This document shows positions 4,730 through 62,057 of a stretch of DNA of 64,000 nucleotides, in pieces. Source of the stretch: an uncultured Gammaproteobacteria bacterium. GTDB taxonomy: Bacteria; Pseudomonadota; Gammaproteobacteria; SZUA-229. Numbering within the stretch: position 1 is the first letter of the stretch; each line of letters begins with the position of its first letter. The stretch spans positions 2,724 to 66,723 of the forward strand of contig CALLCZ010000052.1 in NCBI GenBank assembly GCA_937998645.1, given 5' to 3'. The translations under genes and the position numbers were made by a program. Under the pieces are notes generated by a model. The model had not been told where the DNA came from and searched no databases. It saw nothing but the letters and a program-made list of their open reading frames with translations.

Positions 4730-6613
4730 ATGAGTAATTACGATGCCTCTGCGATCGAGGTGTTAACCGGTCTTGAACCGGTGCAAAAGCGGCCTGGTAT
4801 GTATACCGATACCAGCCGTCCCAACCATCTGGCACAGGAAGTAGTCGATAACAGTGTCGACGAGGCTCTAGCAGGGCACGCGAGTAAAATCGATGTCATT
4901 CTATATAAAGACGGCTCCCTGTCAGTGAGTGATAACGGGCGCGGCATGCCTGTCGACAAGCACCCGCAACAGGGTATACCGGGTGTGGAAGTAATCCTGA
5001 CCAAGTTGCATGCCGGCGGCAAGTTTTCCGACAAAAACTACCAGTTTTCCGGTGGCCTGCATGGTGTCGGTGTTTCTGTTGTCAATGCCCTGTCGTCAAT
5101 GCTTGAAGTAGAGGTGAAGCGTGACGGAACGGTCTACAACATGGCCTTCAAAAAGGGTGCTGTAACAACAAAACTGAAAAAAACCGGCACCGTCGGCAAG
5201 CGCAATACCGGTACTCGAATTCATTTCTGGCCGGATAAACAATATTTTGATTCAGTTAATTTTTCCTTGCCGCGTCTCAAGCATGTATTACGCGCCAAGG
5301 CTGTGCTGTGCCCCGGCCTGGAAGTTACATTACTGGAAGAAAAAAGCGGCGACAAGCAGACATGGTTCTATGAAGGTGGCTTACAGGATTATCTCGGTGA
5401 AAACCTGTTCGACAAGGAAACCATGCCGCTTGAGCCGTTCACTGAAAGTATGGTGGGTCTGAATGAAGCGGTCGACTGGTCTGTTACCTGGTTGGTGGAA
5501 AGTGGTGAACTGGTCACGGAATCGTATGTCAATTTAATCCCGACCGCACAGGGTGGTACCCATGTTAATGGATTGCGTACCGGCCTGACCGATGCCTTGC
5601 GTGAGTTTTGTGAATTTCGCAGTCTCATACCCCGCGGTGTCAAGATCAGCCCCGAGGATGTCTGGGATCGTGTCTGCTACGTGCTTTCAGTCAAGTTGCA
5701 GGACCCCCAGTTTTCCGGCCAGACCAAGGAACGGCTGTCATCTCGCGAATGTGCAACATTTGTTTCGGGCGTGGTCAAAGATTCGTTCAGCCTGTGGCTC
5801 AACCAGCACACGGATGCCGGTGAAGCGATCGCAATGCTTGCAATTGAGAATGCGCAAAAACGCTTGCGCGCAGGGCGCAAGGTTGTTCGAAAGAAAGTAA
5901 CATCCGGTCCGGCATTACCGGGAAAGCTGGCCGACTGTACTTCGCAGGATACAACACGATCCGAAATATTCCTGGTGGAAGGCGATTCTGCCGGTGGTTC
6001 CGCCAAGCAGGCCCGTGACCGTGAATATCAGGCCATAATGCCGTTGCGCGGAAAGATACTGAATACATGGGAAGTGTCACCGGACCAGGTGCTGGCTTCA
6101 CAGGAGGTGCATGATATTTCTGTTGCACTCGGGGTAGAGCCGGGTTCCAGTGATATCAAGAGCCTGCGTTATGGCAAGGTATGCGTACTTGCAGATGCTG
6201 ATTCCGATGGCTATCACATTGCTACCCTGTTATGTGCACTGTTTTTACGCCATTTCAGACCGCTGGTCGAAGCGGGTCATATCTATATCGCCATTCCGCC
6301 GCTGTATCGCATCGATGTCGGTAAAGAAATTTTCTATGCGCTGGATGAAGCGGAGAAAGAAGGTGTGCTGGACCGCATCAGCGCTGAAAAAAAACGGGGC
6401 AAAGTCAACGTTACCCGCTTTAAAGGTCTGGGTGAAATGAATCCGTTGCAGCTGCGCGTCACCACAATGTCACCGGATACGCGCAAACTGGTGCAGCTGA
6501 CGGTAGACAAGGGTGACAAGACCAACCAGATGCTGGACATGCTGCTGGGCAGAAAGCGTGCGCCGGACCGGAAAAAATGGCTGGAAAAGAAAGGCGACCT
6601 CGCGGTTGTTTAA
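4730..6613 (+). CDS. parE: DNA topoisomerase IV subunit B
   Basis: Starts MSNYDASAIEVLTGLEPVQKRPGMYTD (the long ORF begins 60 nt earlier at an in-frame ATG). GHKL ATPase and TOPRIM motifs are present (EVVDNSVDEALAG, LVEGDSAGGSAKQARDREYQAIMPLRGKILN). About 630 aa. Adjacent to parC. Confidence 0.95.
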   Translation: MSNYDASAIEVLTGLEPVQKRPGMYTDTSRPNHLAQEVVDNSVDEALAGHASKIDVILYKDGSLSVSDNGRGMPVDKHPQQGIPGVEVILTKLHAGGKFSDKNYQFSGGLHGVGVSVVNALSSMLEVEVKRDGTVYNMAFKKGAVTTKLKKTGTVGKRNTGTRIHFWPDKQYFDSVNFSLPRLKHVLRAKAVLCPGLEVTLLEEKSGDKQTWFYEGGLQDYLGENLFDKETMPLEPFTESMVGLNEAVDWSVTWLVESGELVTESYVNLIPTAQGGTHVNGLRTGLTDALREFCEFRSLIPRGVKISPEDVWDRVCYVLSVKLQDPQFSGQTKERLSSRECATFVSGVVKDSFSLWLNQHTDAGEAIAMLAIENAQKRLRAGRKVVRKKVTSGPALPGKLADCTSQDTTRSEIFLVEGDSAGGSAKQARDREYQAIMPLRGKILNTWEVSPDQVLASQEVHDISVALGVEPGSSDIKSLRYGKVCVLADADSDGYHIATLLCALFLRHFRPLVEAGHIYIAIPPLYRIDVGKEIFYALDEAEKEGVLDRISAEKKRGKVNVTRFKGLGEMNPLQLRVTTMSPDTRKLVQLTVDKGDKTNQMLDMLLGRKRAPDRKKWLEKKGDLAVV

Positions 6614-6853: not shown

Positions 6854-9124
6854 ATGACCGATCAATCTGAAATTGATTTCGAAGGTGTCGAGCGACAACC
6901 GCTCGCTGAGTTTACCGAGAAGGCGTACCTGGATTATTCCATGTACGTTATTCTCGATCGTGCATTACCCTTTATTGGTGATGGCCTCAAGCCTGTACAA
7001 CGGCGCATTGTTTATGCGATGTCAGAACTGGGGCTAAGCGCCGCATCCAAGCATAAGAAGTCAGCGCGTACGGTAGGTGACGTGCTTGGTAAATATCATC
7101 CTCATGGCGATAGCGCCTGCTACGAAGCCATGGTGTTGATGGCGCAGCCGTTCTCTTATCGCTATCCTTTGGTGGATGGTCAAGGTAACTGGGGTTCTCC
7201 CGATGACCCCAAGTCTTTTGCTGCCATGCGTTATACAGAATCGAGGCTCATGCCTTATGCAGAAGTATTGCTGCGTGAACTGGGGCAGGGTACGGTCAAC
7301 TGGGTCCCCAATTTTGACGGTTCTATGCAGGAGCCGGAAACCTTGCCTGCGCGGCTGCCAAATGTACTGCTCAATGGCGGCACGGGCATCGCCGTGGGTA
7401 TGGCAACCGATATATTGCCGCACAATCTCAATGAGGTGGCCAGTGCCTGCATACGTTTGCTGGAACAGCCAAAGTCTACTCTCGAGGAAATCTGTGAGCA
7501 CATCAAGGGGCCGGATTTTCCGACTGAAGCTGAAATCATTACGCCGCGCAAAGACATCCTGGAAACTTACCGGACAGGACATGGAAATATTCGTCAACGT
7601 GCAATCTATGAGGCAGAGGGGCATGATATCGTTATCACGGCACTGCCTTACCAGGTGTCAGGCAACAAGGTTATCGAGCAGATTGCGCAGCAAATGATTG
7701 CGAAAAAACTGCCTATGGTTGAAGACCTGCGCGATGAATCAGATCATGAGAACCCGACACGTATAGTCATTGTGCCACGCTCGAACCGTGTCAATAAAGA
7801 AGAGCTGATGCATCATCTGTTCGCAACCACTGATCTTGAGCGCAGTTATCGCGTCAACATGAACATGATCGGTATCGATGGCCGCCCTCAGGTCAAGAAC
7901 CTGCTCTCGCTGTTGAGCGAATGGATCAAGTTCCGCAGTGTGACTGTGAGACGTCGCCTGCAATGGCGTCTCGACAAGGTCAATATGCGTTTGCACATCC
8001 TTGATGGTTTGCTGATTGCATATCTGAATATTGATGAAGTCATTGCCATCATTCGTGAAAACGACAAGCCCAAGCCGGTATTGATGACACGTTTCAAGAT
8101 CAGTGATGAACAGGCTGAAGCGATTCTTGAATTGAAATTACGCCACCTGGCAAAGCTTGAGGAAATGAAGATCCGAGGCGAGCAGGATGAGCTGTCGGTG
8201 GAACGCGACAGCCTGGAATCAATTCTGGCTTCAGCACGCCGATTAAAAACTCTGATACGCAAGGAAATTCTGGAAGATGCAGAGAAATACGGCGATGAGC
8301 GCCGCTCGCCGATTATCGAACGCGGTGCAGCACAGGCCATTAACGAAGCTGCACTGATCACAAGTGAAGCGATCACTGTTGTACTGTCGAAGAAGGGCTG
8401 GGTCAGGGCTGCCAGGGGGCATGATATAGATGCGAGTAAACTGAATTACAAATCCGGTGATGAATTCCAGGCTTCAGCTACTGGCAAAAACAACCAGCTC
8501 GCCGTATTTCTGGATTCAAGCGGACGCGCCTATACACTACCTGCACATAAACTGCCATCGGCAAGAGGGCAGGGCGACCCGCTGACCAGTCACTTCACAT
8601 TAGCTGCAGGGGCCAGCTTTGTTTCGGTGATGATCGGTGATCCAGAGCAGTTTTACCTGGTGGGCAGCAGTTTTGGCTATGGTTTTGTTGTTCGCCTCGG
8701 TGACATGCACGCACGCACCAAAACCGGGAAGGCTATGTTGAATGTCGGCAAGCAGGCCAGGGCACTGCCGGCGGTACCCGTGCGCGACCTCGAAAAGGAT
8801 TATATTGTTGCGGTAACAACAGAAGGCCACATGCTGAAAACCGAACTCTCGAAATTGCCACAGATGGCGCGTGGAAAAGGTAATAAAATCATAAACATAC
8901 CTGGTGCCAGATTGAAGTCGGGTGATGAGGTGGTTACAGCATTATCGCTGATCCAGGACGGTGAAAAACTCACCGTTCATTCTGGTAAAAAATACAAGGT
9001 GATGAAGCCCGGCGAGGTAGACAGCTATTACGGTGAGCGTGGACGCCGAGGTCTTAAACTGCCGCGTGGTTACCGCAGTGTCGATCGCCTGGAAGTGCAG
9101 CAGAAAGCTGCCAGAGAAGACTAG
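6854..9124 (+). CDS. parC: DNA topoisomerase IV subunit A
   Basis: 756 aa. GyrA/ParC family N-terminus ([28 protein letters not shown]), catalytic Tyr context ([10 protein letters not shown]), C-terminal beta-pinwheel region. Immediately follows parE. Confidence 0.95.
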
Positions 9125-9387: not shown

Positions 9388-10272
9388 ATGAAACGCATCG
9401 CACTTTTTCTCGCTACCAATATCGCCGTACTGATCATTCTGAGTATCGTCCTCAGTATCCTGGGTGTCGATTCATTACTACAGGAAAACAACGTTGATCT
9501 TGATTTGCAGGCGCTGCTTATATTTTCTGCTGTGTTCGGTATGGGTGGTTCATTCATTTCGCTGGCCATGTCGAAATGGTCAGCAAAGCGCATGACTGGT
9601 GCACAGGTTATTGAACATCCGCAAAACAAAACCCAGCAATGGCTGTTGACGACAGTAAAACAGCAGGCCGAACAGGCGGGTATCGCCATGCCGGAAGTGG
9701 CTATTTATAACTCGCCGGATATCAATGCTTTTGCTACAGGTATGAGTCGTAACAAAGCACTGGTCGCTGTCACAACGGGCCTGATTAGTAACATGAAAAT
9801 GGATGAGGCCGAGGCGGTGTTGGGCCATGAAATATCGCATGTGGCTAACGGCGACATGATTACTCTCGCCTTGATACAGGGCGTTGTTAATACTTTTGTG
9901 ATTTTCTTCTCGCGTGTCGTCGGCCACGTTGTTGACCGCGTTGTCTTCAAAACAGAGCGCGGTTATGGGCCAGCGTATTACATTACCAGCATCCTTGCAC
10001 AGATCGTGTTCGGGATTCTGGCCAGCGCTATCGTAATGTATTTCTCTAGATTGCGTGAATTCCGAGCTGATGCAGGTGGCGCGAGCCTGGCTGGCAGGGA
10101 TAAGATGATTGCTGCGTTACGAAGATTGCAGTCGATCCATGAGCCATCACACCTGCCTGATCAATTGGTCGCGTTCGGTATTAATGGCGGTCTGGCTGAA
10201 GGCATGCGCAAGCTGTTCATGAGTCATCCGCCCCTGTCGCAACGAATTGCGGCTCTACAAGCTAAGAGTTAA
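9388..10272 (+). CDS. htpX: Membrane zinc metalloprotease HtpX (heat-shock protease)
   Basis: 294 aa. N-terminal TM segments. HExxH zinc motif ([12 protein letters not shown]). C-terminal conserved [13 protein letters not shown] typical of HtpX/M48 peptidases. Confidence 0.9.
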
Positions 10273-10384
10273 TCGCGATATTAGACTGATTGGTATTGTT
10301 TGGGGAAGTGGCGAGGGATGAGTGGCGAGTGGCAAGGCTGTGAACTTATCTTTTCCTCGCCACTGACTACTTATCCCTCGCCAC

Positions 10385-10420
10385 TCACGGATATAGCAGG
10401 CTAGCCCGCTATATCCGTGA
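10385..10420. terminator. Perfect 13-bp-stem palindrome at the convergent junction htpX / EAL gene (candidate bidirectional terminator)
   Basis: tcacggatatagc-aggctagccc-gctatatccgtga. Overlaps the stop codon of the minus-strand EAL gene. Preceded by nested inverted repeats at 10304-10388. Confidence 0.4.
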
Positions 10421-33495: not shown

Positions 33496-33737
33496 TACTG
33501 CCTGATGATGAGCCGCATATTGCACAAAGGCGGACACAATGTGACAGATGTTGATTGAGATTGTAATCAGCTACCGCGATTTAATGCTTACACAGCTAGT
33601 CCTATTTGGCTTTATGAATAACCTGGCGTCACATCTTGAACGATCCCCCTTGATCCATAGCTATTGCTATGAATCCGCGGGCGATCGTCCAACCTGTTTA
33701 GCCAGGTTGTCCAAAAATTCCAAATCCTTCATGCAAT

Positions 33738-34910
33738 ATGCGGCTTAATGGTTCAACGCCTTACTGGCGTCTCTCCAGCTTTTACTTCTTCTATTTCGCA
33801 TCGCTGGGTGCACTGATACCGTACTGGAGCCTGTACCTCAAGTCGCTTGATTACAGTGCGCAGTCAATCGGCATATTGATGGCGATTATTCCTGCGACCA
33901 AGATAGTTGCGCCTTATTTGTGGGGCTGGCTGGCAGACCACACCCGGCACCCGATCGCAATCATCCGGCTGGCAAATCTGCTCGCCGTGGTGACATTCGC
34001 CGGCGTGTTCGTCGATACCGGTTTTATCTGGCTGTCGCTGGTTTTGCTCGCTTTCAGTTTTTTCTGGAATTCATCCTTGCCCCTGTTCGAGGCCATGACA
34101 CTGAATCATCTCGGTGATGATGAACACAGGTACAGCGCTGTCAGACTGTGGGGCTCTCTCGGTTTCATTATGATGGTTGTGCTTCTCGGCAAGTATTTCG
34201 ATATGACCAGCATCGACCGGGCGCCGCTCGTTATTGTTATTCTGCTTGCAGGCATATTACTGGTCAGCCTGATCGTGCCTGAACGCCTGAGTACGCATCA
34301 TGAAGGCCAGGTGCCAATCATTCACGTGATACGCGAACCCGTGGTACTGGCATTTCTGCTGGTTTGTTTTCTGATGCTGATGAGCCACGGACCGTATTAC
34401 ACCTTCTACAGTATCTACCTGGAAAGCCATGGTTACAGTCGAGGTATGATCGGCCTGCTGTGGGCGATCGGCGTGATGGCTGAAGTCATCGTGTTCCTGA
34501 TGATGCACAGATTGCTGCTGACAATCGACATGCGTAAATTACTTCTGATAACTTTTCTGTTAACGGCGTTGCGCTGGGTATTGATCGGTTTTTTTGTTGA
34601 TAATCTTTCCGTGCTGTTCTTTGCACAGCTGTTTCACGCATTCAGCTTTGGTGTTTTTCATGCGGTCAGTATATCGCTGGTACATCGCTTCTTTACCGGC
34701 CGGCACCAGGGGCGGGGCCAGGCATTATATGCAAGTCTGAGTTTCGGTGCAGGCGGAGCGGCGGGCAGTTTACTCAGCGGCCTGTTGTGGGACCGGATAG
34801 ATCATGCCTGGTTGTTCAGTCTTGCGGCTGCTGTTGCGATCATTGCCTTTCTCATCGTATGGCGCTTTATTCACTTCACGACTCATCGGAATACTTCATC
34901 AGCTGGCTGA
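33738..34910 (+). CDS. MFS-family transporter (12 TM)
   Basis: 390 aa, highly hydrophobic with 12 predicted TM segments. Major-facilitator-like loop motifs. Substrate unknown. Confidence 0.8.
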   Translation: MRLNGSTPYWRLSSFYFFYFASLGALIPYWSLYLKSLDYSAQSIGILMAIIPATKIVAPYLWGWLADHTRHPIAIIRLANLLAVVTFAGVFVDTGFIWLSLVLLAFSFFWNSSLPLFEAMTLNHLGDDEHRYSAVRLWGSLGFIMMVVLLGKYFDMTSIDRAPLVIVILLAGILLVSLIVPERLSTHHEGQVPIIHVIREPVVLAFLLVCFLMLMSHGPYYTFYSIYLESHGYSRGMIGLLWAIGVMAEVIVFLMMHRLLLTIDMRKLLLITFLLTALRWVLIGFFVDNLSVLFFAQLFHAFSFGVFHAVSISLVHRFFTGRHQGRGQALYASLSFGAGGAAGSLLSGLLWDRIDHAWLFSLAAAVAIIAFLIVWRFIHFTTHRNTSSAG

Positions 34911-54101: not shown

Positions 54102-54569
54102 ATGACTGAAAATCTTATTCCCGGCATACGCAACGCTGTACGTGCAGTCATCACGCAAGATGACGCGGTTCTGCTGCAACGCAAGATTGATGATAATGGT
54201 GCAGAACGCTATGCACTTCCTGGCGGGGCACAGGAGCACGGAGAGAGCCTGACCGAAGCACTGCAGCGCGAATGCGAAGAAGAAATAGGTACACGGGTTG
54301 AAGTCATCGATCTGCTGTTTGTCGGTGACTATTTCAAGCTGAGGCAAACATCACCACCGACAACAAGGCAGTTACTCGAATTTCTGTTTGCCTGTAACGT
54401 AGGGCCAGACTATCAACCCCGGAATGGGCCGCGCCCGGACAAACACCAGGTCGACGTAGAATGGGTTCCAGTCAACCGACTGGATGAAATCAATCTTGTG
54501 CCTGTTGATTATGTTGAGTTGCTGCGGAAACAGAAACAGTCTCGCATTTATGTCGGGCAAGTGTTTTGA
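54102..54569 (+). CDS. Nudix hydrolase
   Basis: 155 aa. Nudix box GGAQEHGESLTEALQRECEEEIG (Gx5Ex7REUxEExGU). Confidence 0.8.
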   Translation: MTENLIPGIRNAVRAVITQDDAVLLQRKIDDNGAERYALPGGAQEHGESLTEALQRECEEEIGTRVEVIDLLFVGDYFKLRQTSPPTTRQLLEFLFACNVGPDYQPRNGPRPDKHQVDVEWVPVNRLDEINLVPVDYVELLRKQKQSRIYVGQVF

Positions 54570-54575
54570 TTCATC

Positions 54576-56216
54576 ATGGATTTGCAGCAAAGCATCCGGC
54601 ATAACCTCGAATTTCTCCAGACCGAACTGGTCAGCCGTCTTGAGAGCATCAAGACCTACCTGGATGATACCTCGCCTGAGGCGGCAGAAAGCATATTCAA
54701 ACGCAGCGGCTATATATCCAACCTGAAGCAACGCATCCATGATGCCTGCTACAGGTATATAGCGGAAACAGATAACTCGGATACGCCTGAAGTTCTTCGT
54801 GTCCGCGCCATCGATATCATTGCAACCGAACTCGAAAACATTGCCGGACTGGGTGAGGAGTTTGTGCAGCAGTCGATCTACCTTGAAGATCCGGGAAGAA
54901 AGAATTTTCCAAGGCTGTTATCACAGATTGATCTTGTCATCGAAGCCGTCGCCATGGTGCACACTGCGCTGTTCGAGAACGACACGCAGGTCGCTATAAA
55001 GATCGGTCGCACCCAGGGAAGGCTGGAACGGAAGTTCAGAAAACTGCTGAAAAAGAATGCCGCATCGCTGCGCGATACCTCGGATGCGGAGAACCTGCTC
55101 AGTATCTCCTTTACTGCCTACTCCATAGAACGCATGGGAGACAGCCTGCTCACGATCAGCGAAGCCATTATTTCAAGTAACCTCGGCATGGTGATGGACA
55201 GCGCCCGGTTCCAGGCGATGCAGGATATCAGCAAGATCACTGACAGCGCGAACACAGAGGAACTGCATATCCAGAATGTTGCCGAGACGCGCTCGGGCGC
55301 GGCGATATCGAGTATACAATTGCCTGACGGTGAGAGTGGCAGTTACCCCGCCATTTTCAAGCAGGGACATACCAAGAAGCTCAAGCAGGAGCGTAAAGGT
55401 GTCGAGAGCTGGCACGATGTGTTCCCGGGCCTGGCGCCGCAGATCCTCTCATGGAAAAAGAAAGGCAAGTCGGCTTCGCTGTTGATCGAGCACCTGTCAG
55501 GCAACACCTTTGAGCAGATTGTGCTGAACGAATCGACCGAAACACTCAATGACGTATTGCAGGAATTGAAAAATACGCTGCATAGCGTGTGGACTGAAAC
55601 ACTGGCTGACAAACCGGTATCTGCGGAATTCATGCGACAGCTCGACAAACGAATCAGCGACGTGTATGCGGTGCACCCGGAGTTTCACGACAGCTTGCAG
55701 GTCATATGCGGGCATAAAGTACCGTCTTTTGACAGCCTTGCAGAAAAAGCGGCCGAAGTCGAAAGCGGACTGCAGGCGCCGTTCTCTGTTTACATTCACG
55801 GTGATTTCAACATAGACAATCTCATCTATGATTCTGATAACAGGCAGATACGCTACGTGGACCTGCATCGTTCGCGCTACATGGATTACGTGCAGGATGT
55901 ATCTGTGTTCATGGTGTCGAATTACCGCCTGCAGGTGCTTGACCCGGTGGTGCGTCAACGCATTGCCGCAGTGATATACAATTTCTATCGCATTGCTGCA
56001 GAGTTCGCAGCAAACAACAAAGACAGTACTTTCGAATTTCGCCTGGCCTTCGGTCTGGTTCGCTCACTGGCAACCTCCACCCGGTTCATACTCGACCGCG
56101 ATCTCGCCCGCGGTATGTTCCTGCGTGCCCGCTACCTGCTGGAGCAGATCGTCAGCCTCGAGCCTGCAGCCTATGAAAACTACCGTGTTCCAGTAGAGGA
56201 GATATTTTGTGGTTAG
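54576..56216 (+). CDS. PhoU-domain / protein-kinase-like (APH/choline-kinase fold) phosphotransferase fusion protein
   Basis: 546 aa. N-terminal ~240 aa with PhoU-like helical repeats, including SIERMGDSLLTISEAI (compare the PhoU ERIGDHATNIAE motif). C-terminal kinase-like domain with Brenner motif HGDFNIDNLIY and downstream YVDLHRS...D. Confidence 0.65.
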   Translation: MDLQQSIRHNLEFLQTELVSRLESIKTYLDDTSPEAAESIFKRSGYISNLKQRIHDACYRYIAETDNSDTPEVLRVRAIDIIATELENIAGLGEEFVQQSIYLEDPGRKNFPRLLSQIDLVIEAVAMVHTALFENDTQVAIKIGRTQGRLERKFRKLLKKNAASLRDTSDAENLLSISFTAYSIERMGDSLLTISEAIISSNLGMVMDSARFQAMQDISKITDSANTEELHIQNVAETRSGAAISSIQLPDGESGSYPAIFKQGHTKKLKQERKGVESWHDVFPGLAPQILSWKKKGKSASLLIEHLSGNTFEQIVLNESTETLNDVLQELKNTLHSVWTETLADKPVSAEFMRQLDKRISDVYAVHPEFHDSLQVICGHKVPSFDSLAEKAAEVESGLQAPFSVYIHGDFNIDNLIYDSDNRQIRYVDLHRSRYMDYVQDVSVFMVSNYRLQVLDPVVRQRIAAVIYNFYRIAAEFAANNKDSTFEFRLAFGLVRSLATSTRFILDRDLARGMFLRARYLLEQIVSLEPAAYENYRVPVEEIFCG

Positions 56217-56457
56217 CCCGCATTTCTCACCAGGCCGCTACGTAACTGGAGTAACCGTATGAATATAAAATCAGAAGATCGATTTCAATCAAATACAGTC
56301 TGTTTAGTGGGGCGCTATTTCGTTCCATGCGCATCTGTAGCGTCCCTGAGCACGCATCTTCCCTCAAACCATAGCTATGGCTATGCTTTTCAGTCCAGAC
56401 GCGCACTCAGAAACACTACAGATGCACCTGAATCCGAAATCCTGGTGAGATATGCGG
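56217..56457 (+). promoter_or_regulatory. Repeated leader element 1: 18-bp inverted repeat spanning the whole intergenic region and overlapping the SD and start codon of the ATP-grasp gene
   Basis: Left arm cccgcatttctcaccagg (56217-56234, right after the upstream stop). Right arm cctggtgagatatgcggg (56440-56457) contains GGUGAGA (SD-like) and the ATG at 56452. Complementary in 17 of 18 positions. Confidence 0.55.
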
Positions 56458-57342
56458 GCTGATCCAAGAATCGGTGTTGTCGGCCTGCCTGGCAAATGGT
56501 CAACGGAAACGCTGGCGGATGCTGTCGAAGCCAGCACAGGGATGCGGCTTGTTATCGATATGAGCGATGTTGCGCTTGATCTCGACGGGCGCAAACTTCT
56601 GTATGGTAAACATGATTTGTGTGAGCTCGATGCTATCATCGTGAAAAAAATCAGCCGTGAATACAGCCCCAACTCGATCGATCGTCTCGAACTGCTGCGC
56701 GTGGCCGAGGCAAAGGGTGTGCGCGTATTCAGCCCGGCACTCAGCATGCTGCGCCTGATTGACAGGCTGAGTTGTACCACAACAATGGCAAATGCCGGGA
56801 TTCCCATGCCACCGACATCGATAACTGAAGATATCGGCCAGGCGGAAGAGGCAGTACGACAGTACGGCAGTGCTGTGTTCAAGCCGTTGTTTTCCACCAA
56901 GGCAAGGGGAATGATTGTTGTTGATGCAGCTGATCCGGAGATAGAGCGTATCGAGCAGATAAAGGATTTTCATCAGCACAATCCAATGATGTATATCCAG
57001 AAAAAAATGGAATTACCCGGCCAGGACCTCGGCCTGGTTTTTCTTGGCGGTGAATACCTGGGCGCCTATGCCAGGGTGTCGGAAGGCAGCTCATGGAATA
57101 CCACGATACTTCATGGTGGCCGTTATGCAGCGGCAGAACCGGATGCCAGCTGGGTCGAAATTGCACAGCGTGCGCAGGGCCTGTTTAATATGGATTACAC
57201 CACGGTGGACATGGCGGAAACTGAAGATGGACCTGTTGTGTTCGAGGTTTCCGCATTCGGCGGCTTTCGTGGTGCGAAAGAGGGTCTGGGTATAAACGTT
57301 GCGGAACGCTATGTTGACTACGTACTGAGCAAACTTGACTGA
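56452..57342 (+). CDS. ATP-grasp ligase (RimK/alpha-L-glutamate-ligase-like)
   Basis: 296 aa. ATP-grasp fold (VFKPLFSTKARGMIVV, MMYIQKKMELPGQDLGLVFLGGEYLGAYAR). Starts with ATGCGGGCT inside a repeated leader element. Confidence 0.75.
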   Translation: MRADPRIGVVGLPGKWSTETLADAVEASTGMRLVIDMSDVALDLDGRKLLYGKHDLCELDAIIVKKISREYSPNSIDRLELLRVAEAKGVRVFSPALSMLRLIDRLSCTTTMANAGIPMPPTSITEDIGQAEEAVRQYGSAVFKPLFSTKARGMIVVDAADPEIERIEQIKDFHQHNPMMYIQKKMELPGQDLGLVFLGGEYLGAYARVSEGSSWNTTILHGGRYAAAEPDASWVEIAQRAQGLFNMDYTTVDMAETEDGPVVFEVSAFGGFRGAKEGLGINVAERYVDYVLSKLD

Positions 57343-57343
57343 T

Positions 57344-58435
57344 ATGAATGACGATCTAAATAGCATAAAGCAGATGTTGACGGGCGATAACGAATTGCTG
57401 CCGTCATCGGTATGTCTGCAACTGATGGACTATCGGCTGGCTATACGCAGTAATTCAGAGCGCTTCCTGCAGTGCATGCAACGCTATTTTTCACACGTGC
57501 TGGCAGCGTCAGGCGATGACGTGCGTGCCGAAGTGATCGCAATAGAGCGTGACATCGTGAATACCAGTGTTGAATTTGTCGACTGGAAACGAGAGCCAGG
57601 TAAAACCGGCCGTAAAGATGCGATTTACGATTTTCCTGCTGGCCGGCTGGTGCGGAAAGTGCGCACGGGCATGCTGTTTCTGCAAAGCGATCGGGACCTG
57701 GTCGTGGCAGGGCCCTGTCTTGAATATGATAACCAGGTGATCAATTTCATCAATTCACAGTTCCTGAACTGGCTGCAGAATGATGGCTACCTGCTATGCC
57801 ATGCGGCCGCACTGTCGCGTAACGGCCATGGCCTGGCGATAGCGGGTTTGTCGGGCGGTGGTAAATCAACGCTGATGCTAAACCTGATGGATGACGCGGC
57901 GACCGCTTTTGTAAGCAATGATCGGTTGCTGGTGCGCAGGCAGGGAGAAACGACACATGCGGTCGGAATTCCCAAGCTGCCACGCATCAACCCGGGCACC
58001 ATTGTGCATAATCCGCGGCTGTTTCCGCTGATTGATGAAAACTCACGTGAACAACTGCTGCAACTGGATAAAAAGGAATTGTGGAAGCTGGAACAGAAAT
58101 ATGATGCCAATATCAATGAGCTTTACGGTCCCGGGCGGATCCAGCATGAAACAGGCCTGTACAGGTTCCTGGTATTGAACTGGCAGCATGACACAGACAA
58201 AGAGCTGCAGGTGAACAGGGTAGACCTGTCGCAGCGCTCGGATCTTTTGTCTGCAATCATGAAACCTTCAGGTCCTTTTTACATGGATACAGCAGGGGTT
58301 TTCAACAGTGATGATGCATTCCCGGAGGCTTCAAACTACCTGACCGAACTTGCAGATGTGGAAATTTATGAGGCCAGCGGCAAAATTGATTTCGAACGAC
58401 TGGGAACAGTGTGTGTTAACGAACTGCTGGTTTGA
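57344..58435 (+). CDS. HprK-related P-loop kinase/phosphorylase-like protein
   Basis: About 363 aa; ATG overlaps the ATP-grasp stop region (an in-frame TTG at 57335 is also possible). C-terminal domain matches the HPr-kinase C-terminal pattern H-AAAL...G.GLAIAGLSGGGKSTLMLNLMDD. Confidence 0.65.
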   Translation: MNDDLNSIKQMLTGDNELLPSSVCLQLMDYRLAIRSNSERFLQCMQRYFSHVLAASGDDVRAEVIAIERDIVNTSVEFVDWKREPGKTGRKDAIYDFPAGRLVRKVRTGMLFLQSDRDLVVAGPCLEYDNQVINFINSQFLNWLQNDGYLLCHAAALSRNGHGLAIAGLSGGGKSTLMLNLMDDAATAFVSNDRLLVRRQGETTHAVGIPKLPRINPGTIVHNPRLFPLIDENSREQLLQLDKKELWKLEQKYDANINELYGPGRIQHETGLYRFLVLNWQHDTDKELQVNRVDLSQRSDLLSAIMKPSGPFYMDTAGVFNSDDAFPEASNYLTELADVEIYEASGKIDFERLGTVCVNELLV

Positions 58436-58480
58436 ATCTGAAGAAAATGACGGCAGGGCAAACGAGCAAGCGGGTATACA

Positions 58481-59452
58481 ATGGCGCGTGAACTTTTGAT
58501 TTTCAGACACGGCAAGGCGGTTGGTAATACAAACGGTGATGATTACTCCCGTCCGATCACCGACAGAGGCAAGCGCGGTTCACAGCGAATGGGCGCCTGG
58601 CTATGGCAGAAAAACATCAGGCCGGATTACATCGTCAGTTCACCGGCCGAGCGTGCCTATGTATCAGCGCAGAAACTTTGCAAGGCCATGGGCGACGATG
58701 CGACATCAATCGTGACTGACAGGCGCCTGTACAGGGGTGATCTCAATTCGTTGCTGAGCGTGCTTGCTGATTGCCCGAAGAACAGGCAAAGGGTCATGCT
58801 GGTCGGCCATAATCCCGCGCTCGCAGAACTGTTGTTATACCTGCTGGGCGGCAAGGCACCGCTGCCGGACGACGGCAGGCTGCTGCCCACGGCGGCGCTG
58901 GCGCGAGTGGTTATGCCGGGTAACTGGAAAAAACCCGGGTTTGGTTGCGCGCAGCTGAAATCATTGACCCGGCATGAGGATCTACCGAAAAAATTCCCCT
59001 TTCCTGCGCCCGACGGCAAGGAAAAAAGAGATCGGCCCGCCTACTATTACCGGCAATCTGCCGTGATACCGTACCGCATGCGCAAGAATCAACTGCAGGT
59101 CATGCTGGTCGGTTCGAGCAAGCGCAATCACTGGGTGGTGCCCAAGGGGATTCACGAGCCTGGTATGTCGGCACAGAAATCCGCAGAAATAGAAGCTTAT
59201 GAAGAAGCAGGCATTCGCGGTACGGTGAGCAAATCCATGCTCGGCGAATACGAGTATCCCAAGTGGGGAGCAAGCTGCAGGGTTGAGGTCTATGCTATGA
59301 GTGTCGGAGAAATACTGCCTGACAGTGAATGGGAAGAAACACACCGTGGCAGGAAATGGCTGTCGACAGATGAAGCGGCCGGTCTGGTCAAGGAGCCGTC
59401 GCTGCGGCCGATGATCCAGTCCCTTGCCGGCTTTATTGAAAGGAAGAGTTAA
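58481..59452 (+). CDS. SixA-like histidine phosphatase fused to a Nudix hydrolase domain
   Basis: 323 aa. N-terminal phosphohistidine-phosphatase signature (LLIFRHGKA...LVGHNPAL). C-terminal Nudix box (KGIHEPGMSAQKSAEIEAYEEAGIRG). Confidence 0.7.
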   Translation: MARELLIFRHGKAVGNTNGDDYSRPITDRGKRGSQRMGAWLWQKNIRPDYIVSSPAERAYVSAQKLCKAMGDDATSIVTDRRLYRGDLNSLLSVLADCPKNRQRVMLVGHNPALAELLLYLLGGKAPLPDDGRLLPTAALARVVMPGNWKKPGFGCAQLKSLTRHEDLPKKFPFPAPDGKEKRDRPAYYYRQSAVIPYRMRKNQLQVMLVGSSKRNHWVVPKGIHEPGMSAQKSAEIEAYEEAGIRGTVSKSMLGEYEYPKWGASCRVEVYAMSVGEILPDSEWEETHRGRKWLSTDEAAGLVKEPSLRPMIQSLAGFIERKS

Positions 59453-59465
59453 ACACATGGATAAC

Positions 59466-59610
59466 CCGCGTTTCTCACCAGGCGGCGTAGTAACTGATGA
59501 GACATAGTCCATTGGAGTAAAGCTGAAATGATGAAAAATACCGTGTGTTATTCAAGCGTGCCTATCACGGTTCCTGCGTCTGCTCCCGTGATCCTGGTGA
59601 GAAATGCGGG
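59466..59610 (+). promoter_or_regulatory. Repeated leader element 2: same inverted repeat in front of the histidine-phosphatase gene
   Basis: Left arm cccgcgtttctcaccagg (59466-59483). Right arm cctggtgagaaatgcggg (59593-59610) includes the ATG at 59604. The single difference gives a G-U pair. Adjacent flanks (ggcgtagtaactg; gatcctggtgag) are also shared with element 1. Confidence 0.55.
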
Positions 59611-60308
59611 CTAGAACCATCGCAGCCCTGATTCGCCATGGCGAATACCAGCAGCAGGCGGATACACCGAGTGCGCACCAGCCTTATGCACTTACCGCGC
59701 AGGCTAAAGCCGACGTGCACGACGAAGTTGACAGCTTTTCCGCTTTGCTCGATAAGCATGCATTGGAAATAGCGCACCGGGTCGATAGTTCGAACATGCT
59801 GCGGGCCTGGCAGACGGCGATGATCTATGTCGAAAAACTGTATCAGCATGAAATGCCAAGCAAACTGATTGACAGTTATGATGCGCTTGCAGAGCGCGGA
59901 CTCGGTGCTGTTGCCAACATGACCATCCAGCAGATAGAAAAAGTCATTGTTGAGGATCCACGTTATCAAGAACCGCCGCAGAACTGGAAATCAGACAGCC
60001 ATTACTGCCTGCCGTTTCAGGGTGCAGAGTCGCTGATGCAGGCAGGTGAGAGAGTGGCTGCACATCTGCAACAGCAAATGCATAAGCTGCGTGCTGAAGC
60101 CAGTGTGGATACGGTAAAACTGTTTATTGGACATGGCGCAGCGTTTCGTCACGCGGCTTTTCACCTGGGCATTCTTGAATTCGAACAACTGGCACAATTC
60201 AGTATGTTCCACGCGCGACCTGTACTGATCGAATATCTCGATGATGGCAGCTGGCGTCATATCGGTGGTGACTGGAAAATTCGTAACGCAGTAAACGGGC
60301 TGGATTGA
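59604..60308 (+). CDS. Histidine phosphatase (phosphoglycerate-mutase-like) family protein
   Basis: 234 aa. N-terminal RHGE (AALIRHGEY) and second His motif (LFIGHGAAFRHA). Starts ATGCGGGCT inside the second copy of the repeated leader element. Confidence 0.7.
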   Translation: MRARTIAALIRHGEYQQQADTPSAHQPYALTAQAKADVHDEVDSFSALLDKHALEIAHRVDSSNMLRAWQTAMIYVEKLYQHEMPSKLIDSYDALAERGLGAVANMTIQQIEKVIVEDPRYQEPPQNWKSDSHYCLPFQGAESLMQAGERVAAHLQQQMHKLRAEASVDTVKLFIGHGAAFRHAAFHLGILEFEQLAQFSMFHARPVLIEYLDDGSWRHIGGDWKIRNAVNGLD

Positions 60309-61645
60309 TCGTGAGTCATCTTCACAAGCTGGTGCCGGACTACCAGGGTATTGAACACACAGGTATTCAACTGCCTGTTGAAACCCAGAAGTGGCTTCAT
60401 GGAAGGAAACGCTCGCTGCAGTCGAGAAGGCTGAACCATCAGCAAACTGCGCAACAGCTATCGGACCTGCTTGCAGAGCATGAATGGACCTGGCCGAGCA
60501 GAACAGTCTATTTTTTAAGTGATCTGCATGCCGATGTCGATGCGCTGACGGCTTCTTTGATTGCATCCGGCGGAGTTAAGGCAAGCGGGAAAAAACACCG
60601 TCATCTAAAGCTCACCAAGCAGGGAAAACAGGCGCAGTTTTTAATTGGCGGCGACTGCTTCGACAAGGGTCCGAGCAATCTTGCGTTGTTGAGAACACTG
60701 AACAGGCTGCATGATCGTGGTGCACGCATGCGTATACTCGCGGGCAATCATGATATCCGGGTCATGCTGGGCATGCGCAACGTCAACCGTAAAAATGATC
60801 CAGGATGCGAGCACTTCTTTATTCGCATGGGCGCAAAAGCGGTGCCCTTCCTCAAGGAAATAAATGACAACTATCTTGCAGGTGCGCACAGCCTGAAGGA
60901 TGTGCCTGGAAAACGAAAATGTGAACAGCGTCTTTATCCGCCCGAGCAATGGTTTGACGAGTTTCCTTTACAGGTGGCAGATTTATTACCGCAGAAGATC
61001 ATCGATAAGGAACTGCGGCGTGTTGTAGAGAAAAGAGAAGACTTCGAGGCGCAATGCGAGAACGTGGGACTTTCTACCCGAAGGGCCTATGCTGCTGCAT
61101 TACAATGGCAGCGATTGTTTCTGCGCGATAAAGGCGAGTTCAGCTGGTTTTTCAGGCGCATGCGTCTTGCCATGAGCAATGGATCATTTCTGTTCGTGCA
61201 TGCAGGGCTGGATAACAACATCGCGCACCTGATCAATCAGAAAGGTATTAAACGGGTCAACCGGGAATTCAACAAACAACTGCAGGGTAATCCCATGCGG
61301 TTTTATTATGGTCCGCTGGCCAACGCGATACGCACTAAATATCGCCCGGGTGACCGGCAGCTGACAAAAAAAGGCGCGCAGCAGGTCCATGAAAACGATA
61401 TACATGTCATTATTCATGGGCACAAGGCGATGCGTAACGGGCAGCGTATCTCGGTTCGAAAGACCATCGTCAACTTTGAATGCGATGTCACACTGGATCG
61501 GCATTCGCGGCGCAGAGACGGTCTCGAGGGATCCGGCGCCGGTGTTACTATCATCAGGCCGGATAAAAAAATCATCGGTATCAGTACCGATCACCCTTAT
61601 GTGAAAGTATTCGATCCGGGTGATTTGCTACAAAACGGAGCTTAA
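60305..61645 (+). CDS. PPP-family metallophosphoesterase (Ser/Thr-phosphatase / ApaH-like)
   Basis: 446 aa. Motifs YFLSDLHAD (GDxHG variant), LIGGDCFDKGP (GDxxDRG), ILAGNHD (GNHE), IIHGH. Confidence 0.7.
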   Translation: MIVSHLHKLVPDYQGIEHTGIQLPVETQKWLHGRKRSLQSRRLNHQQTAQQLSDLLAEHEWTWPSRTVYFLSDLHADVDALTASLIASGGVKASGKKHRHLKLTKQGKQAQFLIGGDCFDKGPSNLALLRTLNRLHDRGARMRILAGNHDIRVMLGMRNVNRKNDPGCEHFFIRMGAKAVPFLKEINDNYLAGAHSLKDVPGKRKCEQRLYPPEQWFDEFPLQVADLLPQKIIDKELRRVVEKREDFEAQCENVGLSTRRAYAAALQWQRLFLRDKGEFSWFFRRMRLAMSNGSFLFVHAGLDNNIAHLINQKGIKRVNREFNKQLQGNPMRFYYGPLANAIRTKYRPGDRQLTKKGAQQVHENDIHVIIHGHKAMRNGQRISVRKTIVNFECDVTLDRHSRRRDGLEGSGAGVTIIRPDKKIIGISTDHPYVKVFDPGDLLQNGA

Positions 61646-61646
61646 T

Positions 61647-61919
61647 ATGAAAAATGGCGACAACTCATTCTGTCACGAATCACTGCAGGACAGGGAAACG
61701 ATCGCGGATATCCTGTCATCCCTGCAGCAGGGTCTGAGTAATGGCACATTGAAGTTCAGCGATGAAGACAACGAAATCACACTGAAGCCGTCAGGCCTGT
61801 TGAACCTTACCGTAAAGGCTTCAAGCGATAGCGACCACAACGTGCTTGACGTGCGTGTTTCCTGGACAAGTAAAAAGTCCAAAAAATTGAAAAAGGAACT
61901 CAGGATATCGGTGGACTGA
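61647..61919 (+). CDS. Small amphi-Trp-domain-like protein (tentative)
   Basis: About 90 aa. SD GGAG 7 nt upstream; start immediately follows the phosphatase stop. Sequence MKNGDNSFCHESLQDRETIADILSSLQQGLSNGTLKFSDEDNEITLKPSGLLNLTVKASSDSDHNVLDVRVSWTSKKSKKLKK resembles the amphi-Trp domain family as I remember it. Confidence 0.5.
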   Translation: MKNGDNSFCHESLQDRETIADILSSLQQGLSNGTLKFSDEDNEITLKPSGLLNLTVKASSDSDHNVLDVRVSWTSKKSKKLKKELRISVD

Positions 61920-62057
61920 ATATCGCGTTTCTCCCCTGGTGCAAAACTCAGCAGGCGTATGTGGCAAGACCGATGCTGTATCAGCAAAAACATTCATCGT
62001 GTTGTATGGTTGCTGATGTGATATTAACTATTCCGAATAAACAGGGACAATAAAGCC

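Follow-up and report, generated by a model that had tools for sequence, protein, structure and literature searches.

The locus considered here raises the question of why two genes of one operon should begin inside the same inverted repeat. The stretch of DNA analysed (the window: 64,000 nucleotides of contig CALLCZ010000052.1, assembly GCA_937998645.1) comes from an uncultured gammaproteobacterium, the nearest named relatives of which were Thiotrichales-like metagenome-assembled genomes (MAGs), and carries an operon of the GAK system, in which the genes for an ATP-grasp protein and for a histidine phosphatase (His-phosphatase) are each preceded by a spacer enclosed by complementary arms. In the initial annotation, made from the letters of the sequence, both spacers were read as helix-closed regulatory leaders bringing the two gene pairs under common control. 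According to the present analysis, both leaders are very probably copies of a transposable element of the miniature inverted-repeat type (MITE), a non-autonomous transposon with 19-bp terminal inverted repeats and TA target-site duplication, that inserted into the first codons of the two genes.

The arm CCCGCRTTTCTCACCAGG or its reverse complement was found at four sites in the window against 0.06 expected, a count reached in none of 100 shuffles. Left arms were located on the + strand at 56217-56234 (CCCGCATTTCTCACCAGG) and at 59465-59482 (CCCGCGTTTCTCACCAGG; shifted by one base from its annotated position), and reverse-complement arms at 56441-56458 (one mismatch) and 59593-59610 (exact), so that 17 of 18 positions were complementary in the first pair and 18 of 18, counting one G-U, in the second, with the pairing running on to 19-21 nt (TAGCCCGC.../...GCGGGCTA). 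The inner flanks were common to both copies as well (39 nt at 82% identity and 38 nt at 79%), and both downstream genes opened with ATGCGGGCT, at 56452 and 59604, within the right arm. The paired arms around both intergenic regions, their degree of complementarity, the shared flanks and the common gene start inside the right arm had all been described correctly in the initial annotation. The GGUGAGA motif, which it took for a Shine-Dalgarno sequence, was also present, but would be a poor one, because in both copies GGTGAG ends only 2 nt 5' of the ATG.

For the state of the same junctions in relatives, 80 GAK loci from GTDB genomes and several closer metagenomic contigs were collected (individual loci are given as L numbers). 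On alignment, the window differs from its empty relatives by clean insertions of 244 and 148 bp duplicating TA. None of the eight closest GTDB genomes, with ATP-grasp proteins 77-91% identical, had a spacer before the ATP-grasp gene; at the empty junction the stop of the upstream kinase gene overlaps the ATP-grasp start (GTGGCTAA; e.g., gaggagatattttGTGGCTAAaccaagaatcgg), with GAGGAG as the Shine-Dalgarno sequence. The closer contigs L211 (~92% DNA identity) and L212 (96.7%) were likewise empty: the site is gaggagatattttGTGGC-TA-ATCCAAGAATCGG there and GTGGT-TA-[244 bp]-TG-ATCCAAGAATCGG in the window, and the right dinucleotide is still TA in the filled L213, L216 and L218. Altogether, L011-L018, L211 and L212 lacked the element at the first junction, and L011-L014, L016, L211, L214 and L217 lacked it at the second. 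At the empty second junction the stop of the SixA-Nudix gene abuts the His-phosphatase start (TGAATG); the sites read ...TGAATGGCAAGAACCATCGC or ...TAAacatATGGCAAGAACC in L211, L214 and L217, and TGAATGGCAAGAACCATCGC or close variants of it in five GTDB relatives, compared to ATGGA-TA-[148 bp]-TA-GAACCATCGC in the window. At the same position L213 carried a variant of the 244-bp type (ATGGC-CA-[...]-TA-GAAC). The second site before insertion would have been ATGGCTAGAAC, a synonymous GCT Ala-codon variant creating CTAG, as reconstructed from the two filled sites. Among the N-termini of 70 ATP-grasp homologs, the filled form MRA(D/N)P and the empty forms MANP/VANP were intermixed at 93-100% identity to the window, and all homologs with 92% identity or less had the empty form. 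The two copies and the reading frames created by them are listed below.

56214..56215, + strand: left TA target-site duplication of copy 1 (empty L211/L212 GTGGC-TA-ATCC vs window GTGGT-TA-[244 bp]-TG-ATCC).
56216..56459, + strand: probable MITE copy 1, 244 bp, of the ~242-244-bp subfamily, with full-length copies in unrelated contigs and absent in relatives.
56216..56234, + strand: left 19-bp terminal inverted repeat of copy 1, GCCCGCATTTCTCACCAGG.
56441..56459, + strand: right terminal inverted repeat of copy 1, CCTGGTGAGATATGCGGGC, containing the ATP-grasp ATG at 56452.
56460..56461, + strand: right target-site duplication of copy 1, here mutated to TG (TA in the three filled relatives).
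56209..56262, + strand: relic open reading frame (ORF) of 17 codons from the native ATP-grasp GTG, the native start being set by the empty sites; its Shine-Dalgarno sequence GAGGAG lies at 56196-56201, it crosses the left repeat as far as a TGA sharing bases with the next ATG (ATGA).
56259..56462, + strand: internal ORF of copy 1, 67 codons, with GGAG at 56248-56251 and no coding constraint; it continues across the right repeat to a TGA overlapping the ATG of the ATP-grasp gene (ATGCGGGCTGA).
56452..57342, + strand: GAK ATP-grasp gene (TIGR04356) with a repeat-donated start, MRADP... vs MANP/VANP... in empty alleles.
59462..59463, + strand: left TA target-site duplication of copy 2.
59464..59611, + strand: probable MITE copy 2, 148 bp; its repeats occupy 59464-59482 and 59593-59611, and L211, L214 and L217 lack it.
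59612..59613, + strand: right TA target-site duplication of copy 2.
59457..59507, + strand: relic ORF of 16 codons from the native His-phosphatase ATG into the left repeat, with stop TAG; the native start ATGGCAAGAACC is present in L011-L016, L211, L214 and L217.
59528..59614, + strand: internal ORF of copy 2, 28 codons, with GGAG at 59514-59517; its TAG (target duplication plus G) overlaps the His-phosphatase ATG (ATGCGGGCTAG).
59604..60308, + strand: histidine-phosphatase gene (His_Phos_1) with a repeat-donated start, MRARTIAAL... vs MARTIAAL... in relatives.

In both genes the insertion point lies between codons 2 and 3, (G/A)TG-GC/TA/...: the target of copy 1 was the TA of GTG-GCT-AAT in the ATP-grasp gene, and that of copy 2 would have been the TA of ATG-GCT-AGA in the His-phosphatase gene. 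The junction alignments show each insertion to have parted the gene body from its native ribosome-binding site and start codon. At its end the right repeat reads ...GAAATGCGGGC/TA and thereby offers an outward-facing ATG, which is in frame after such an insertion; the rebuilt proteins are one residue longer (MRADP... vs MANP... and MRART... vs MART...). On the other side, the first G of the element and the duplicated TA together form a TAG, by which the kinase gene stops precisely where it did before. As judged from substitution patterns, the rebuilt ATP-grasp and His-phosphatase genes are under purifying selection and not decaying, with a ratio of nonsynonymous to synonymous substitution rates (dN/dS) of 0.06-0.09 at dS 0.28-0.43 for the former among filled alleles and of 0.08-0.12 for the latter.

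Outside the operon, at least 120 metagenome stretches contained the arm. The 80 arm loci that were fetched included no GAK operon, and their similarity to the window was limited to the element or to unrelated genes. The genes beside the arms elsewhere were mutually unrelated (YceI, oxidoreductases, ADH, PAS protein, Na/Ca exchanger, LytB, ChaN, TruA and RecD2). These loci and the GAK loci together yielded 35 complete elements sharing the 19-bp repeat GCCCGCATTTCTCACCAGG and its complement, with a mean column identity of 94% and 92.9% of cells paired. Arm-to-arm lengths ranged from 46 to 750 bp, most commonly 178 bp and ~242 bp; since the 750-bp pair in L155 encloses a YceI gene, it probably represents two neighbouring elements, which would make 494 bp the largest true size. 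TA was found on both sides in 28 of the 35 elements, and the sequence outside the TA was different in every case. Over 116 ends the target consensus was C-TA-G (-3, C in 85 and T in 26; -2, T in 109; -1, A in 108).

Between the fixed repeats the interior was modular, from 8 to ~450 nt in length, the shortest copies being plain hairpins of 46-48 bp (L018, L118). Copy 1 aligned from end to end with copies in the unrelated contigs L099, L141 and L117 at 89-91% identity; in copy 2, the 5' part was common to at least eight other copies and the 3' part to L119 and L162. All the features by which a MITE is recognised were thus found: terminal inverted repeats, TA duplication, many contexts, small size without a transposase gene, and presence/absence polymorphism. 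In the consensus of the ~244-bp subfamily (window 56214-56462, L099, L141, L144, L213, L216 and L218) one frame was open from TAG to TAG over 81 codons and the other two had three and five stops; the 69-nt insert of L144 and L213 leaves the open frame intact, the 3' half was clearly more conserved than the 5' half, and there was no codon-position signal. A coding frame conserved across the whole family was rejected, the open frames being in different registers and the lengths unconstrained modulo 3. Several of the Logan contigs L007-L010 had their first base within the right arm, exactly 31 nt before the start of the ATP-grasp gene, and many metagenome matches were within 100-200 nt of a contig end; contig ends at the arms are as expected, because assemblers break at multi-copy repeats.

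A specificity for CTAG was reportedly described for IS630 by Tenzen et al. in 1990. Duplication of TA on insertion is the rule for the IS630/Tc1-mariner superfamily, including IS630/ISY100 (PMC2170065), and the target-site signature of the present family points to mobilisation by a transposase of this type. This link is drawn from the TA/CTAG signature because no parent transposase was found: no arm pair enclosed a transposase, the widely spaced pairs L155 and L124 enclosing YceI, oxidoreductase and ADH genes, and the 10 ORFs beside unpaired arms included neither a transposase nor a RAYT gene, being unrelated housekeeping genes. Searches for the element in viral contigs and plasmid records gave nothing.

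Several observations weigh against insertion of a mobile element at the two junctions, at least as a simple history. The observed empty second sites read ATGGCAAGAAC, whereas ATGGCTAGAAC is a reconstruction. The first junction is empty in L212, the closest relative, and filled in the more distant L216, L218 and L213. Between the window and L216 the identity is 97.5% for copy 1, 89-91% for the flanks and 76-77% for third codon positions. Finally, no autonomous element combining the same repeats with a DDE transposase was found among 170 loci. To account for the untidy distribution of filled and empty sites and for the identity of copy 1, one of three processes seems to be needed: filling of both TA sites (TGGC/TA/R) more than once, as insertion hot spots, homogenisation of the copies by gene conversion, or an ability of the element to excise precisely. 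The first junction of L213 holds a 313-bp variant, the 69-nt internal insert of which also occurs in the unrelated copy L144. In L015 (81% ATP-grasp identity) a ~410-bp composite, apparently nested, was found at the SixA-Nudix TAG stop (9994-10419) and a 68-bp copy just upstream of the kinase gene (5286-5353), and L018 and L064 also carry copies upstream; the L015 insertions indicate that different lineages accumulate these elements at different points of the same operon.

Donation of a start codon by the repeat was not confined to the two operon genes. The ORF starting at the repeat ATG of L095 has an IspD domain from residue 7 onwards, the next in-frame start being codon 17, and in L121 an SDR domain begins at residue 13, with the next in-frame start at codon 29. 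In the window itself a further member was recognised by its interior, between the chorismate synthase and MFS transporter genes, which matched that of the L130 element with an E value of 1e-22; within its right end lies the ATG at 33738, where alone the MFS gene can feasibly start, and the MFS_1_like domain begins at residue 9. A general enrichment of long ORFs in the frame of the repeat ATG was rejected, such an ORF following 12 of 115 ends against 18 in the neighbouring frame; start donation does occur, therefore, and it is no general rule. Also listed is a sequence downstream of the two copies that had been taken for a third, degenerate left arm. The match exists, but a profile of 70 element ends recovered only the four arms of the window and BLAST against the elements gave E 0.9, which does not support the sequence as a family member.

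33597..33745, + strand: decayed family relative without recognisable repeats, right end ATATGCGGCTTA; 75.6% identity over 123 nt to the L130 interior.
61924..61939, + strand: arm-like 16-mer CGCGTTTCTCCCCTGG (claimed third arm), 14/16 match; family membership unsupported.

The stability of the structures was assessed by folding relative to shuffled sequence, giving -105.2 kcal/mol (z -8.2) for leader 1 and -61.8 kcal/mol (z -4.2) for leader 2; the arm duplexes by themselves reached -41.2 kcal/mol (copy 1) and -36.5 kcal/mol (copy 2), and the pairing probability of the AUG in the ensemble was 0.95-1.00 in both. The long-range helix is thus favoured in both predicted folds and, given that the operon is transcribed as a single RNA, the arms should form a very stable helix hiding both start codons. 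Such a helix arises because the terminal repeats of the element pair, and is no evidence of a purpose-built switch. In the arms of the family, seven cells were changed on both sides compared to 2.9 in shuffles (7 of 500 shuffles reached seven), and 39 cells were unpaired; this covariation signal appears weak, and the matched variants fit shared ancestry within subfamilies. An outward promoter or terminator inside the copies was considered and rejected: the scan for consensus promoters gave none within either copy, and the terminator scan gave a single weak terminator-like hairpin (56370-56385), with overall counts at the level of shuffles.

In a polycistronic RNA the two repeats would pair (about -36 to -41 kcal/mol) and hide the donated AUG, so that downstream expression probably depends on ribosomes unwinding the helix. 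A relay could serve this purpose. The stranded native starts retain their Shine-Dalgarno sequences and would open the 16-17-codon ORFs that enter the left arm; the GGAG-preceded internal ORF would then be read through the right arm, opening the helix. In both copies the internal ORF ends 5 nt beyond the donated AUG, a geometry which would allow termination-reinitiation. The initiation regions of the internal ORFs were about half paired (P 0.46-0.49). By an alternative route, RNase III may cut the ~20-bp stem, as in Correia elements (PMC2229807).

A MITE origin would be compatible with later co-option of the hairpin to gate translation of the ATP-grasp/HprK-B and His-phosphatase/metallophosphatase pairs, perhaps melting with temperature or depending on upstream translation or RNase III; the function proposed in the initial annotation would then be retained, with another origin. 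Such an exaptation is unlikely, albeit with several points in its favor: the very stable predicted helix hides both AUGs, filled alleles have been kept in genes that remain under purifying selection, copy 1 is more conserved between the window and L216 than its flanks, and GGAG precedes the internal ORF in copy 1, L216 and L218, being replaced by AGAG in L213 and by CGAG in three of the four unrelated copies compared. However, close relatives manage without either element, and the different variants at the same sites across lineages speak for turnover instead of a retained device. The conservation of copy 1 is also uneven, with 90.6% identity both to L218 and to L213, and the changes within the repeats mostly break pairs (the 39 unpaired against seven compensated cells given above).

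On the preferred reading of the leaders as MITE copies, a still more doubtful extension is that the family is pre-adapted to densely packed operons as a portable translational-coupling cassette, with a TAG stop regenerated upstream on insertion at C-TA-G, an in-frame ATG-CGG-GC/TA start downstream and, in the 244-bp subfamily, a TAG-to-TAG open ORF between them, the translation of which would unwind the helix and pass ribosomes on to the donated AUG. If true, this would explain the repeated filling of both codon-2/3 sites of the GAK operon by different variants.

Another kind of mobile repeat, namely REP/BIME-like palindromes spread by a RAYT transposase (IS200/IS605-type, acting on single strands) without target duplication, is very improbable here. 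The plain hairpins among the shortest copies (L018, L118) and the lack of a DDE transposase among the loci would suit it. Elements of the IS200/IS605 type are asymmetric at their ends and enter 3' of a tetra- or pentanucleotide, leaving no duplication, whereas in the present family the filled minus the empty site equals the element plus one extra TA, the ends are symmetric and the target C-TA-G is palindromic. The long variable interiors between fixed repeats, and the RAYT-free neighborhood of the arms, also speak against it.

Even less credence can be given to the regulatory proposal from which the question arose, i.e., that a dedicated cis-regulatory RNA leader (riboswitch, thermometer or operator) of the GAK operon was duplicated inside it. 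Folds far more stable than shuffled sequence, two copies in one operon and sequestration of both starts are what such a leader would show, and the helix part of the claim stands in the predicted folds. Its assignment to a dedicated regulatory class does not: relatives ranging from 77% protein identity to 96.7% DNA identity lack the element at the orthologous junctions, and a scan of 56100-59700 against Rfam at E <= 1 gave only a chance snoRNA match (20 bits vs a 90-bit threshold). The modular interior of 8 to ~450 nt, moreover, lacks a conserved core resembling a ligand pocket. Homologous copies do exist elsewhere, but in the at least 120 unrelated contexts with target-site duplication and not as leaders of these genes. 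The co-regulation deduced from the shared leaders falls with this, since the likeness of the two copies comes from their membership in one mobile-element family and not from a regulator common to the gene pairs.

Least credible is the idea that the internal small ORFs are real genes, e.g., precursors resembling ribosomally synthesised and post-translationally modified peptides (RiPPs) for the ATP-grasp ligase or HprK-like kinase, with the repeats incidental, and it was rejected: both ORFs do have a well-spaced GGAG and end in ...ILVR(Y/N)AG before an ATP-grasp ligase or phosphatase, but they matched no Pfam or NCBIfam family, are absent from relatives keeping the whole operon, recur in copies beside unrelated genes with the same ORF sequence and vary evenly by codon position (14/16/16 and 14/23/17), and the absence of stops among 54 distinct variants was not significant (P = 0.11).

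The operon invaded by the two copies consists, in this order, of genes for a PhoU/APH-kinase fusion (54576-56216), the GAK ATP-grasp protein, an HprK-related kinase B, a SixA-Nudix fusion, a His_Phos_1 phosphatase, a metallophosphatase and an amphi-Trp protein. Its assignment to the GAK system (NCBIfam) follows from the presence in one cluster of TIGR04356 (439 bits), TIGR04355 (343.6 bits) and TIGR04354 (63.3 bits), all above the cut-offs. The whole island (54102-61919) comprises the GAK system plus a Nudix protein, the PhoU+APH-kinase fusion, the SixA-Nudix fusion, the His_Phos_1 phosphatase and the metallophosphatase, and its gene order was kept in the closest relatives examined (L011-L018, L211, L213-L218). 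In L213 the spacer between the HprK-B and SixA-Nudix genes (6984-7164) is 180 nt long compared to 45 nt in the window, and contains a hairpin-like sequence unrelated to the MITE, possibly another repeat family. GAK ATP-grasp loci ~67% identical to the window were also found in MAGs labelled 'Halobacteria archaeon' (L023) and 'Ilumatobacteraceae' (L058); these host labels are likely binning or labelling errors and not the true hosts.

If the leaders are MITE copies, a riboswitch-like leader of the uncharacterised GAK phospho-signalling operon turns out to be mobile DNA and a false lead is removed, with the practical consequence that scans of metagenomes for structured leaders need a check of empty sites and copy number before regulation is called. 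The family itself appears to be undescribed, is abundant in public metagenomes (the at least 120 stretches mentioned) and has a clean TA/CTAG signature. It offers four or five cases of repeat-donated start codons for housekeeping or operon genes, with the host genes under purifying selection, and a natural system for asking how translation handles a ~20-bp helix over an operon AUG, for which the relay ORFs and RNase III are the candidates.

Among known systems, Correia elements also duplicate TA. RUP, Correia and ERIC are the classical examples of bacterial MITEs, for which hairpins acting as RNase III substrates and MITE-ORF fusions have been described (PMC2229807). Similarly to the family found here, the Correia/NEMIS elements are short (about 100-155 bp) and non-autonomous, with terminal inverted repeats and TA flanks; they are transcribed together with the genes beside them, as the copies here would be, and their repeats form long hairpins, which in Neisseria are substrates of RNase III and alter the expression of adjacent genes (PMC2229807). 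The sequences are unrelated, however, with a 19-bp GCCCGC... repeat here against a 26-bp one there, the interior is modular, sizes span a much wider range (46-494 bp), and an uncultured Thiotrichales-like gammaproteobacterium takes the place of Neisseria as host. With RUP of Streptococcus pneumoniae and IS630/ISY100 the family shares the duplicated TA target (PMC2170065, PMC2229807) and the C-TA-G preference; in contrast to RUP, which has a parent, IS630-Spn1, with matching repeats, no parent transposase was found.

Provision of the translational start of a neighbouring gene by a repeat is shared with MITEAba12, where adjacent genes take their four N-terminal residues, MQQS, from the repeat (PMC6382973), with Neisseria REP2, carrying a ribosome-binding site and ATG (PMC3184786), and with the Borrelia upstream repeats. 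The proposed parent of MITEAba12, ISAba12, makes 9-bp duplications and belongs to a different transposon family; furthermore, the start donated here replaces a native start severed by the same insertion, twice in one operon, with the AUG inside a ~20-bp helix. The ERIC/IRU elements of enterobacteria are ~127-bp imperfect palindromes that are likewise co-transcribed in operons, where the hairpin affects mRNA stability (PMC2229807). Their sequences are unrelated to the present family, and the ERIC copies are intergenic. To our knowledge, ERIC copies do not supply start codons. In the coat-replicase pairing of phage MS2, as in structure-dependent coupling within operons, a helix-locked start is opened by ribosomes translating the complementary upstream segment, and long-range coupling of this type would be comparable only if the relay model is right. 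The MS2 pairing, moreover, is conserved and selected, whereas the one described here is probably a by-product of transposon repeats that is absent in close relatives.

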